Below, in pieces: positions 49,501-52,500 of a stretch of 64,000 nt of DNA. Location of the stretch: the NCBI RefSeq assembly GCF_022846255.1, contig NZ_AP025682.1; one strand, 5' to 3'. Within the stretch, counting starts at the first letter, position 1, and each line of letters opens with the position of its first letter. The DNA comes from Escherichia coli (GTDB lineage Bacteria; Pseudomonadota; Gammaproteobacteria; Enterobacterales; Enterobacteriaceae). Position numbers: made by a program.

Positions 49501-52500
49501 GACCTGTTTATCCTTCGCATACTTCACGCCACGATAATCTTGGTCGATGATGTACCAGTCCGGGAAGCCCTGCGCCCGGTACAGTTCACGCGGCTGTAAC
49601 ATGCGCATACCAATATCAACAATGCGATACGTCACGCCATCGATCACCACCAGCCCGGTACAATCCTCGCCACAGTATTTACGCAGGAACGACAGCGTTT
49701 GTTGCGCGCGTTCTTCGTCGTACTCATCTACGGCAAGATGGGTTTCAACGTTCCCTACATGCAGGCCACCAGCCGTGACAGTCGGCATTGGCGCGTCGGT
49801 GCGTTGTCCATCCCGGCAGGTTCCGCGCAATTTAACCAGGTGAGAAGCAACCACAGCATGGTGATCGACGGTGGTCACAGAATGCATCGGCTCATCCATC
49901 CCCACTTCGGCAATAAACCGGTAAAGGTGTTCGCGATAAAGGTGAATATCAATGACTAAATCAGCAGCAGAAAGCAAAAGAATTTTTAGGTACAATCAAA
50001 ATCACTTTTTGTTGTTAACTATTTGATGAACTACAAGGATAAGATCATGTATCAGCAAATCATTTTTGAAGAAGGAAAAGAACCAAGAGTGCACACAAGC
50101 CACCAAGACATCAAGACATCAAGACATCAAGACATCAAGACATCAAGACATCAAGTCTATCGAAATAAGTGATAACAGTGGAAAAGTTCAAGAGATTTCG
50201 GTTATGGAGTTCAAGGATACCAGAGGAGATGTTTTTTATGCTTACAACTATGCTTATTCTGGTAAAAAACCATCAAATGACGAAATCTATAAGGCTATTG
50301 ATGAGCTAAAGCCAATCGGTGAAAAATTCGAAATGTCTAAGACTATAAGCGATTAGATAAATCTGTTTTCAACATTGCAGCAAAATCATAGGAAGAACGC
50401 GACAAAGTTAACATGCTATCGCGAACAGTCGTTAACATCACCTAAAGTCAGCGAATCGCGATACATGGAAATGTCTGGGAAGAACGCCAAGAAGTAAGCG
50501 CAATTTGAACAAATGCGAACCCGCCGAGTGCGGGTTTTCTTTTATCTGAACTCGCTACGGCGGGTTTTGTTTTATGGAGACAAGAAATGTCAGATTTGGC
50601 TATGAAGGTTTTGAAATGGCAATCGACTGGCGATGTTGGCATCAGTAGCGCAACTCTTGCCTCAATCGCATGTGGACTGAAAAAGAATATCTATGGTCAT
50701 AGCTTCGGTGCTCCACATGACGCAGCCGATTTCCGACGATGCGTTGCGCTTGTCGAGCAGATTCCAGAAATCAGGGATTCATTCGACAAGGTTGCAAAGC
50801 GCGTTCCGGCATTCAAAGGCATCCTCAACGAATGGGATTCTCTCGTTGCTCTGTTGAAGTCTGAAATGAAGATACACGGAAACAAAGCACCAGAGACTTA
50901 CAGAAGAATTAGCGAGTTACGCAAGGACTAACCACAGCCTCACACTCGATGAGGCCCGTTCATTTCTCAAGATATCCAGACCTACCATTGCCGCATCAAT
51001 GCGGCTTTTCTTGCGTGTAATTGCGGAGACTTTGCGATGTACTTGACACTTCAGGAGTGGAACGCACGCCAGCGACGCCCAAGAAGCCTTGAAACAGTTC
51101 GTCGATGGGTGCGCGAATGCAGGATATTCCCTCCTCCGGTTAAGGATGGAAGAGAGTATCTGTTCCACGAATCAGCGGTAAAGGTTGACTTAAATCGACC
51201 AGTAACAGGTAGCCTTTTGAAGAGGATCAGAAATGGGAAGAAGGCGAAGTCATGAGCGCCGGGATTTACCCCCTAACCTTTATATAAGAAACAATGGATA
51301 TTACTGCTACAGGGACCCAAGGACGGGTAAAGAGTTCGGATTAGGCAGAGACAGGAGGATAGCAATTACTGAAGCAATACAGGCCAATATTGAGTTACTC
51401 TCAGACAGCGGACGCAAATCACTAATAGACAGAATTAAAGGCGGTGACGCAATCACTCTTCATGTGTGGCTTGACCGATATGAAACAATCCTCACCGAAA
51501 GGGGGATCAGGCCGAAAACTCTACTCGACTACGCCAGCAAAATCAGGGCAATCCGAAGAAAATTGCCGGACAAACCGCTCACTGACATATCAACGAAAGA
51601 AGTGGCAGCAATGCTAAACACCTACGTAGCAGAAGGTAAAGCAGCTTCCGCAAAATTAATCAGGTCAACCCTTGTTGACGTTTTTCGTGAAGCAATAGCC
51701 GAGGGGCATGTGGCAACGAATCCGGTAACAGCAACCCGTACAGCAAAGTCAGAAGTAAGGCGCTCAAGGCTGACAGCTAATGAGTATGTCGAGATTTACC
51801 ATGCAGCCGAACCTCTCCCTATCTGGCTAAGGCTGGCGATGGATTTGGCCGTCGTTACAGGGCAGAGAGTCGGCGATTTGTGCAGAATGAAATGGTCAGA
51901 CATAAACGACAACCATCTTCACATTGAACAGAGTAAAACAGGGGCTAAACTCGCCATTCCGCTAACGCTAACGATTGACGCGCTCAATATCTCATTGGCT
52001 GATACACTACAGAAATGCAGGGAGGCCAGCAGCAGTGAAACTATAATCGCATCAAAGCATCACGATCCGCTTTCCCCGAAAACAGTATCAAAGTATTTTA
52101 CAAAGGCGAGAAATGCATCTGGACTCTCATTTGATGGAAACCCGCCAACATTCCATGAACTGCGTAGCCTGTCAGCGAGGCTATACCGGAACCAGATTGG
52201 CGATAAGTTTGCTCAACGTCTTCTCGGGCATAAATCAGACTCAATGGCGGCGCGGTATAGGGACAGCCGTGGACGGGAATGGGACAAAATTGAAATCGAC
52301 AAATGATTTTATTTTGACTAATAATGACCTGCCTACATTAATTCATTGATAATAAAAGAGATTTTAAATATACAACTTATTCACCTAAAGTGCACCGACC
52401 GTGAATTTAACCCTGACCCGAAGACTCTGGATGGGCTTTGCCCTGATGGCGCTGTTAACCCTGACCAGTACCCTGGTGGGATGGTACAACCTGCGCTTTA

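Follow-up and report, generated by a model that had tools for sequence, protein, structure and literature searches.

ORF114, a conserved exo-xis-region gene in an Escherichia coli prophage, belongs to a described lambdoid backbone and lies behind a predicted tandem terminator

In the long early operon of phage lambda, intrinsic terminators such as tL1, tL2 and tL3 are overridden by the antiterminator N. Lambdoid genomes may also carry morons, a concept of Hendrix and Juhala, which are promoter-gene-terminator cassettes inserted between backbone genes. In phage 434 (GenBank M60848, OL657226) the int-proximal region is annotated in the order tL4, ORF55, ORF114, t'I, pI with its cII site, xis and int, the record citing PMID 6305007 for the terminator t'-I. 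In lambda, tandem hairpins separate ea8.5 from orf55, a gene unrelated to ORF114 that lies between this tandem terminator and xis; ORF114, present in 434 and HK022, is absent from lambda. The lambda hairpins t3, t4 and t5 are predicted terminators listed in Table 4 of Bloch et al. 2014 (PMC4195576), t4-lambda being an ARNold prediction there, and the qRT-PCR of that paper covers neither orf55 nor ORF114.

We analysed a 64,000-nucleotide stretch of E. coli DNA (the window) which carries a prophage with the same arrangement (Table 1). From hairpin 2 onwards the window aligned with 434 at about 95%, the Shine-Dalgarno sequence, t'I, the cII site, xis and int being colinear, and its 114-codon gene is the 434 "ORF114", with a nucleotide identity of about 95%. 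Three differences were observed. The window cleanly lacks ORF55, with the joint at TTTTAT(T)GGAGA, the motif found in 434 ahead of ORF55 as well as of ORF114; the hairpin-1 stem reads AACCCGC/GCGGGTT in the window and CATCCTCG/CGAGGAT in 434; and the sequences upstream of the hairpins are unrelated. Against lambda, blastn homology ended at 47931, returned at 50532-50589 (hairpin 2) and then from 51006. Hairpin 2 is identical to t4-lambda, within a 58-nt match that is 91% identical, and both phages share TTT(C/A)TTTTATCT between the tandem hairpins and, after the xis-proximal terminator, CTTGCGTGTAATTGCGGAGACTTTGCG-ATG(xis). The hairpin at the end of lambda orf55 also serves as the xis-proximal terminator, whereas ORF114 in the window is flanked by two such hairpins, which are near-repeats of one another, the downstream one being the counterpart of lambda t5. 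By orthology and map position, as the last terminators ahead of the orf55/ORF114-xis segment, the tandem hairpins of the window, as predicted terminators, correspond to lambda t3/t4 and to 434 tL4, hairpin 1 taking the place of lambda t3 and 434 tL4. The pair of terminators and ORF114 are thus part of a lambda-like prophage backbone that has already been described, and neither is new; the locus is best classed as explained backbone rather than a new element.

Table 1. Features of the ORF114 locus and of the early region of the prophage (window coordinates).
Feature	Position	Strand	Basis and remarks
nutL-like site and N antiterminator gene	42757-43179	+	boxA-like GCTCTTTAA and boxB hairpin CCCGCCGAAATGCGGG, by sequence reading
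N gene	42907-43179	+	Pfam N_peptide, E 2e-15
Ea22-like gene, N-terminal fragment, 69 aa	47882-48091	+	Pfam Ead_Ea22, E 3e-12, profile 1-72 of 139
176-aa orphan gene	48581-49111	-	antisense to the pL operon; PHROG 2602; cargo, outside the ORF114 module
C5 DNA methyltransferase, C-terminal remnant	49408-49896	-	Pfam DNA_methylase, 239-320 of 324 only; cargo debris
ASCH-domain gene, last ~20 codons	49897-49959	+	matches E. coli genes annotated with an ASCH domain
Portable repeat-gene cassette with 160-nt non-coding tail	49960-50516	+	PHROG 7123; colinear with Gifsy-1 STM2623.1n, nin region
Hairpin 1 and U-tract (predicted terminator)	50517-50545	+	terminator scan; stem 50517-50537, 8 pairs, 5 G-C; tail TCTTTTATCT
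Hairpin 2 and U-tract (predicted terminator)	50548-50577	+	terminator scan; stem 50548-50567, 8 pairs, 4 G-C; tail TGTTTTATGG
ORF114 (114 aa)	50587-50931	+	Shine-Dalgarno GGAG 50576-50579; conserved lambdoid exo-xis-region gene; predicted all-helical
Hairpin without U-tract, just past the ORF114 stop	50937-50955	+	recurrent right-hand homology breakpoint (50967)
t'I-type terminator (predicted)	50990-51010	+	terminator scan; GCCGCATCAATGCGGC + TTTTCTTGCG; directly before pI and xis
cII-binding site of pI (predicted)	51011-51024	+	regex match, TTGCGTGTAATTGC; same location annotated in 434 OL657226
xis	51037-51255	+	Pfam Exc, E 4e-41; HK022/434-type
int	51233-52306	+	HK022/434-type, by 434/HK022 matches

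A first-pass annotation had described two tandem terminator-like hairpins before a 114-aa ORF that ends about 100 bp upstream of xis. Both hairpins were found, and the distance from the ORF114 stop to the xis start was 105 bp. Each of them has the stem-loop and U-tract of a predicted intrinsic terminator, with 5 T among the 8 nucleotides downstream, and the terminator scan returned 12 such sites in the 5-kb region versus 5.2 +/- 2.3 in shuffled sequences. Folded alone, hairpins 1 and 2 gave -12.0 kcal/mol (z -2.5) and -11.0 kcal/mol (z -2.7), respectively; the 82-nt segment containing both had z = -4.4, none of 200 shuffles folding equally well. When the two were folded jointly, a long alternative pairing of arm 1 with arm 4 was favoured (-30.6 kcal/mol), which, if formed co-transcriptionally, could alter termination efficiency. 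The U-tract of hairpin 2 extends into the Shine-Dalgarno sequence of ORF114.

This arrangement bears on how ORF114 may be expressed. Between hairpin 2 and the ORF114 ATG there is no space for a promoter, only 9 nt separating the U-tract from the Shine-Dalgarno sequence, and on the + strand from 48620 to 52295 no promoter-like site was detected by a simple consensus scan, which non-consensus or activator-dependent promoters could escape. Since ORF114 has no detectable promoter of its own, only N-antiterminated pL transcripts should yield it. The exact lambda boxA, CGCTCTTA, is absent, and the variant and boxB hairpin listed in Table 1 are present instead; as N and a nutL-like site are both encoded, ORF114 would be gated rather than isolated. 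The description of the gene as "transcriptionally insulated" therefore holds in so far as terminators bracket it and no promoter of its own is detectable, but such an architecture is standard for an N-antiterminated pL operon.

We propose the following sequence of events. Transcription in the pL direction, along the + strand, would run through the cassette tail, the tandem predicted terminator and the ORF114 module in succession, hairpin 1 having probably given way to the terminator that the cassette brought along, with hairpin 2 as the invariant backbone copy. Without modification by N at nutL, RNA polymerase would halt at the hairpins, whether it started inside the cargo in a lysogen or at pL before N accumulates, so that ORF114, xis and int would not be read accidentally. 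N-modified polymerase from pL would pass the hairpins and make ORF114 a delayed-early product alongside Xis and Int. Because ORF114 lies upstream of the cII-dependent pI, it would be absent from the int transcript made during the establishment of lysogeny. The short conserved hairpin sequences may double as homologous joints through which cargo, ORF55 and ORF114 modules are swapped among phages, and such exchange would leave the upstream slot hypervariable. Termination and N read-through are predicted here from the sequence, from database annotation and by analogy with lambda tL1, tL2 and tL3, which likewise lie as intrinsic terminators inside the early operon of a phage that encodes N and nut. 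ORF114 should accordingly be an early lytic gene, as read from its sequence context, and not a defence gene expressed in the lysogen. We give this whole account, a cassette tail followed by the lambdoid tandem terminator and the 434 ORF114, gated by N, a probability of about 0.8.

ORF114 is a real gene under purifying selection. Among 56 alleles, 44 synonymous and 19 nonsynonymous distinct substitutions were counted, with no stops (pN/pS 0.12), and 939 of 5,426 complete E. coli genomes (17%) contain the gene, which places it among the commonest unannotated E. coli prophage genes. Its product matched PHROG 1229 over residues 1-114 (E 1.9e-51), and proteins 96-99% identical to it carry only the name "hypothetical". 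No match was obtained in Pfam or NCBIfam, nor to the defence-protein HMMs of PADLOC-DB v2; BLASTP against lambda Ea8.5 and lambda Orf55 gave no alignment at E <= 100. An AF2 model had a pLDDT of 93.5. A PDB fold search gave no structural relative, and PDB sequence searches with the single protein and with a 40-member profile returned nothing below E = 0.8. The protein belongs to a large, unannotated phage family of 2,815 clusters with an invariant motif, P-x-D-x-x-D-x-x-R-C, and a conserved polar site (S20, D45, D48, R51 and C52). The family includes one protein with two copies and several with N- or C-terminal extensions that have no Pfam match; domain fusions were too few to serve as a clue to function, the one fusion to a CCA-adding enzyme coming from a single 1.9-kb metagenome contig. 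Distant relatives are located in early replication/recombination regions, and the neighbourhoods of 69 of them contained no recurrent partner gene. Terminator gating was also considered as a trait of the entire family and discarded (5/69 versus 52/606 controls). The literature searched for ORF114, tL4, PHROG 1229 or anti-defence functions of exo-xis genes gave nothing relevant. The first-pass annotation had stated that its proposal would fail if the block were conserved as ordinary early genes with assigned non-defence functions; for ORF114 this holds by half, as it is a conserved ordinary early gene, but no function has been assigned to it by anyone.

The evidence points to no specific function for ORF114. 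Our best guess, which we hold at slightly less than even odds, is a stand-alone early factor, host-directed or counter-defence, acting through the conserved polar site. A different role would be the modulation of lysis-lysogeny or of induction, as for the exo-xis genes orf60a, orf61, orf63, ea22 and ea8.5 of lambda and phi24B. Exo-xis genes collectively change lysogenisation and induction, according to PMC3824215, PMC7093339 and PMC6213356, and ORF114 lies in the exo-xis region and would be expressed with the early programme. The literature yielded no experiment on ORF114, however, and a modelling survey of exo-xis proteins omits it; moreover, the family reaches well outside lambdoid phages, to phages with different regulatory circuits. 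We consider modulation unlikely, though it deserves to be kept in mind, and as a best guess we rank the host-directed or counter-defence role ahead of it. ORF114 is common and its family very large, with an invariant polar motif but without structural relatives, which makes a knock-out or overexpression screen cheap and reasonable.

We compared the locus across 82 sequences, comprising 80 viral-contig loci, phage 434 and the window. In every one, a hairpin followed by a T-run lay no more than about 15 nt from the Shine-Dalgarno sequence of ORF114, and the terminator t'I and the cII-dependent pI lay downstream of the gene. The upstream hairpin belonged to a tandem pair in 36 sequences and to the end of ORF55 in 46; ORF114 is therefore positioned between a tandem or ORF55-end terminator and t'I, pI and xis. 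The hairpin pair recurred in 35 viral-contig loci and likewise in lambda, 434 and Gifsy-1. Variants were folded one by one, as the columns of the MAFFT alignment were out of structural register and loop lengths differ. Hairpin 2 was found in all 36 tandem-hairpin sequences, its variation being limited to changes from G-C to G-U or A-U. At the hairpin-1 position at least five distinct stems occurred, every one of which folds (-6 to -14 kcal/mol) and precedes the invariant TTTCTTTTATCT. The variation of hairpin-1 stems with retention of pairing and U-tract points to selection on RNA structure and not on DNA sequence identity. Hairpin 2 is the constant, backbone element; hairpin 1 of the window has the stem that moves along with the repeat-gene cassette and matches the hairpin behind the Gifsy-1 copy of the repeat gene.

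The same data bear on the idea that the hairpins are mainly recombination linkers promoting modular exchange, their terminator shape being incidental or vestigial. Homology breakpoints do cluster precisely at the hairpins, on the left at 50532/3 (30 breakpoints), 50563 (18) and 50570 (28) and on the right at 50967 (15), 50986 (11) and 51009 (26). The same pair occurs at an unrelated position in Gifsy-1, the two hairpins flanking ORF114 are near-repeats, and gain or loss of ORF55 takes place at TTTTAT(T)GGAGA joints that are almost identical. Against a purely linking role, pairing and U-tract persist while the stems vary, and two independent terminator predictors call the lambda hairpins. As the main explanation we judge it improbable, and it is compatible with N-gated terminators, not exclusive of them.

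Upstream of the hairpins the region is a variable accessory hotspot, and ORF114 is its flank and not its cargo. The slot is bounded on the left by the DksA-like/Ea22 5' end, the Ea22-like fragment forming the left edge in the window, and on the right by hairpin 2 and ORF114. The kilobase upstream of the hairpins fell into 46 clusters among 79 loci, the downstream xis/int modules into 7. The window segment 48050-49897 was found in none of the 80 viral loci and in none of 5,426 complete E. coli genomes. The 176-aa orphan had no match in Pfam, PADLOC or NCBIfam, and its homologues, at 44% identity, lie between cI and N in Stx phages. The methyltransferase remnant corresponds to positions 214-393 of 400 of PHROG 23072 and matched methyltransferase models of PADLOC-DB v2, in which the 176-aa and repeat proteins had no match. 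The ASCH-gene end also matches ORF 3' ends in 11 viral-contig loci, and in many relatives an ASCH-domain gene stands directly before hairpin 1. The repeat gene contains (CAAGACAT)x7.5 at 50096-50155 (TRF), which shifts the frame relative to Gifsy-1; the nin-region copy of Gifsy-1 carries both hairpins, and homology ends right behind hairpin 2. Positions 50357-50516, which had been included in the ORF114 feature as its first 160 bases, are the non-coding tail of this cassette, and Rfam gave no match to this spacer or to the hairpins.

These observations also bear on a reading built on the original proposal. In it, ORF114 would be an insulated, moron-like and possibly defensive gene, forming one functional unit together with the methylase remnant, the repeat gene and the 176-aa orphan and expressed outside the phage early programme. 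The proposed block of about 3.4 kb was roughly right, the gap in lambda homology running from 47931 to 50532, and so was the variable int-proximal slot; ORF114 and the hairpins, however, are a conserved flank outside it, since the hairpins are lambda t3/t4 (434 tL4) and the gene occurs in 17% of complete E. coli genomes. The terminators on both sides, the absence of the gene from lambda, the lack of an assigned function and the truly variable neighbourhood speak for such a unit. ORF114 further resembles a moron as a discrete, terminator-flanked module with sharp boundaries and a sporadic presence among similar phages. Unlike a moron, it has no detectable promoter, is oriented with the operon right behind a terminator and would depend on antiterminated transcription; the moron concept is a better fit for the repeat-gene cassette upstream and for the 176-aa gene in antisense orientation. 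ORF114 is constant, yet 48050-49897 is unique to the window and 46 different cargoes lie upstream, and the distant relatives in early replication/recombination regions have no fixed partner. The defence slant fared no better, ORF114 having no PADLOC match and the slot cargo sampled in other phages giving matches only to methylase, DndB and mad8, with no complete defence system. An insulated defensive unit is thus very improbable. For annotators, the exact anatomy of this lambdoid slot indicates where cargo is and is not expected.

Finally, a helper of Xis/Int directionality in site-specific recombination might be expected directly before xis and on a shared pL transcript, as ORF114 is, but one and the same ORF114 occurs with 7 different xis/int modules, homology often stops at 50967-51009, short of xis, lambda has a closely related xis and no ORF114, and distant family members do not lie beside integrases, which leaves this role barely credible. 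Beyond int, the prophage end adjoins host torS (torS/yccM flank).

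The leftward (pL) operon of the lambdoid prophage lies on the + strand of the window (see table); sieB and the DUF2528 gene are accessory genes of the ordinary lambdoid kind. The flanking host DNA resembles Escherichia; across the torS flank (52320-55300), the closest of 5,426 complete E. coli genomes is 98.3% identical, and the host may belong to Shigella or to an atypical Escherichia lineage.

Features of the lambdoid prophage and of the region upstream of xis
Feature	Coordinates	Strand	Remarks
cI-like repressor	41944-42594		
nutL-like site	~42757-42799		boxA-like GCTCTTTAA, boxB hairpin CCCGCCGAAATGCGGG
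N antiterminator	42907-43179		Pfam N_peptide, E 2e-15
sieB (SieB superinfection exclusion)	43196-43777	-	Pfam E 2.5e-22; antisense, just 3' of N
DUF2528 gene	44374-44742	+	farther down the pL operon
gam, bet, exo	45046-46930		
small exo-xis ORFs	between exo and xis		
176-aa orphan	48581-49111	-	PHROG 2602; no Pfam or PADLOC match
195-aa ORF	49408-49995	-	chimera
ASCH-domain gene, last ~20 codons	49897-49959	+	
repeat gene	50047-50356	+	(CAAGACAT)x7.5 at 50096-50155
hairpin 1	50517-50537	+	T-rich tail
hairpin 2	50548-50567	+	T-rich tail
ORF114	50587-50931	+	114 aa; GGAG 9 nt past the U-tract; 105-bp gap to xis
cII site of pI	51011-51024		downstream of ORF114
xis	51037-51255		Pfam Exc, E 4e-41
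int	51233-52306		
torS	from 52401		host gene

The two tandem terminator-like hairpins and the 114-aa ORF that the first-pass annotation had placed upstream of xis were both recovered, the hairpins by a terminator scan as well as by RNA folding. The scan returned 12 terminator-like sites in the 5-kb region, compared with 5.2 +/- 2.3 in shuffled sequences. Hairpins 1 and 2 had folding energies of -12.0 and -11.0 kcal/mol, and the 82-nt segment containing them gave z = -4.4, with none of 200 shuffles folding as well. Within 50505-50586 the hairpins are near-duplicates (GAACCCGC...GCGGGTTTT versus GAACTCGC...GCGGGTTTT), and thus the four arms of this variant can form one long alternative structure. 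This structure, in which arms 1 and 4 pair, as do arms 2 and 3, was the minimum-energy fold of the pair, at -30.6 kcal/mol versus -23 summed for two separate hairpins.

Megablast of 50357-50931 matched phage 434, HK022, mEp phages, many Stx phages and Salmonella phages. The 434 records are annotated, in order, with terminator tL4, ORF55, ORF114 (from which the ORF studied here takes its name), terminator t'I, the cII-dependent pI, xis and int. From hairpin 2 onward 434 aligns with the window at ~95%, whereas its ORF55 is missing from the window; the joint left by this loss, TTTTAT(T)GGAGA, is a motif that in 434 precedes ORF55 and ORF114 alike. Lambda carries the same tandem hairpin pair between ea8.5 and its own orf55 (TAACAATCCTCGCACTCGCGGGGATTTATTTTATCTGAACTCGCTACGGCGGGTTTTGTTTTATGGAGA), and a third hairpin (GCCGCCTGATGGCGG plus a T-run) closes lambda orf55 and leads straight into the xis leader. 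Exactly these three lambda hairpins were predicted by ARNold as t3, t4 and t5 (Bloch et al. 2014, PMC4195576, Table 4), and counterparts of t1 and t2 from the same paper are present in the window at ~46983 and ~47586. The feature is therefore already known, as tL4 and ORF114 of 434 and as t3/t4/t5 of lambda. All that the window adds is a trivial new mosaic, in which ORF55 has been lost and hairpin 1 swapped for the terminator of an inserted cassette.

We compared 82 sequences, namely 80 viral-contig loci with ORF114 97-100% identical, phage 434 and the window. In every one of them a hairpin with a T-run lay no more than ~15 nt from the Shine-Dalgarno sequence of ORF114. The tandem layout, in which hairpin 1 is followed by an invariant TTTCTTTTATCT and a constant hairpin 2, was present in 36, including the window; among these, hairpin 1 occurred with at least five stem sequences, all of which fold (-6 to -14 kcal/mol). 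In 46 of the 82, ORF55 lay directly upstream of ORF114, with its stop codon within the loop of its own hairpin. Homology to the window broke off on the left at 50532/3 (30 loci), 50563 (18) and 50570 (28) and on the right at 50967 (15), 50986 (11) and 51009 (26), every recurrent breakpoint falling at hairpins. Hairpin 1 of the window belongs to the repeat-gene cassette, a portable unit whose Gifsy-1 copy resides within the nin region, well away from int; there both hairpins come next and homology stops directly past hairpin 2. Taken together, the folding stem variants, the breakpoints and the Gifsy-1 copy indicate, at the level of sequence, that selection acts on the structure of these terminator-shaped RNA elements and that the hairpins are also joints for module exchange. 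Many in-frame chimeras joining part of ORF114 to parts of ERF, Kil, Ea22-like or dATP/dGTP pyrophosphohydrolase proteins occur in public databases (P0015, P0017, P0026, P0029, P0035, P0052, P0053 and P0063), so recombination joints also lie inside the ORF114 coding sequence.

ORF114 is a real, constrained gene, since its 56 alleles had 44 distinct synonymous versus 19 nonsynonymous substitutions (pN/pS 0.12) and no stops. It was present in 939 of the 5,426 E. coli genomes, and at least 1,000 contigs carried the exact protein, labelled 'hypothetical' in each case. No match was found in Pfam, NCBIfam, PADLOC or PDB sequences, nor any similarity to lambda Ea8.5 or Orf55. The lasting value here lies in its very widespread family: a profile search gave 2,815 clusters at E <= 1e-3, and G18, S20, P43, D45, D48, R51, C52 and W83 were invariant in 40 divergent members. 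Distant relatives had early replication/recombination and accessory neighbours with no recurrent partner, and terminators were no more frequent upstream of them (5/69) than of control ORFs (52/606), showing that terminator bracketing belongs to the lambdoid backbone and not to the protein family. Two unusual architectures were each seen once, on a short contig: a metagenome CCA-adding enzyme (PolyA_pol plus HD, NCBIfam PRK10885-like) with a C-terminal ORF114-like domain (P0165, L004 37-1713), and a tandem pair of such domains (P0067).

The order of the elements and their match to features annotated or predicted in lambda and 434 are established. Upstream of ORF114 there was no promoter-like site and no room for one; the N gene and nutL-like site are both present. 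By established lambda biology, polymerase unmodified by N would stop at the tandem terminator and t'I, which would shield ORF114, xis and int from cargo-born transcription in lysogeny and likewise block early unmodified pL transcription from entering them. N-modified polymerase would read through, making ORF114 delayed-early together with Xis and Int, while the cII-driven pI transcript, producing Int alone, would leave it out. Our preferred reading, held tentatively (roughly 45%), is that ORF114 is an early factor, host-directed or counter-defence. Some other role altogether is less probable, and a lysis-lysogeny modulator like other exo-xis genes, the second-ranked named role, slightly less so again. 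The early expression predicted from termination and N read-through would argue against a lysogen-expressed defence role.

The first-pass annotation had treated the whole block as one accessory unit and a candidate hotspot. The variable exo-xis slot is real, the 1-kb segments preceding the hairpins forming 46 clusters in 79 loci versus 7 for the DNA downstream of ORF114, but ORF114 is its conserved right-hand anchor and not cargo. Nor is the slot demonstrably a defence island: PADLOC found only methylase, DndB and mad8 models in the cargo of other phages. Cargo elsewhere included genes for an orphan methylase, for DndB-like, Mom-family and Rv2179c-like exoribonuclease proteins and for AntA; a LysR gene paired with an efflux gene, an LprI-like gene and numerous unknowns also occurred. 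The window's own cargo is a patchwork of an Ea22 5' fragment, the antisense 176-aa orphan, the 3' half of a C5-methylase gene, an ASCH end and the repeat-gene cassette. Its middle part (48050-49897) was absent from all viral loci and all 5,426 E. coli genomes and had no megablast-level match in 50,697 phage records.

Compared with the Gifsy-1 homologue STM2623.1n (89 aa), the repeat array contributes 40 extra nt, so the frame of the Gifsy-type ATG (50047) is closed by a stop codon at 50172, and the C-terminal two thirds, which are conserved, lie in a different frame (ORF 50066-50356, TTG start). A coding repeat of 8 nt would change frame with copy number, and from its sequence the gene resembles either a pseudogene or a slipped-strand OFF state. 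In the cassette's non-coding tail, 42 nt (~50437-50478) are inserted compared with Gifsy-1; five viral loci (L029, L033, L052, L063 and L067) have only the last ~105 nt of the tail and hairpin 1 in common with it, preceded by a truncated ERF gene.

Homologues of the 176-aa orphan (44% identical) were found in ~50 Stx and other lambdoid phages (e.g. L156 3001-3522), between cI and N and in the same orientation as cI, a position that suggests lysogen expression there. In lambda this slot is occupied by rexAB. Unlike in the Stx phages, the window's copy sits in the exo-xis slot, antisense to pL, and no consensus promoter was found for it. The ~350-nt tail behind the gene is non-coding; within it, 48226-48375 (-) ends at a good minus-strand terminator (48249-48228) and gave two weak Rfam matches below threshold, which are probably chance: RsmY (22 bits, gathering 57, E 0.024) and the Gifsy-1 sRNA isrK (21 bits, gathering 50). 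The C-terminal part of the chimeric 195-aa ORF derives from the 3' half of the C5-methylase gene, and the ~30 codons at its start overlap the end of the ASCH-domain gene on the opposite strand. In many relatives this ASCH gene is the one immediately upstream of hairpin 1.
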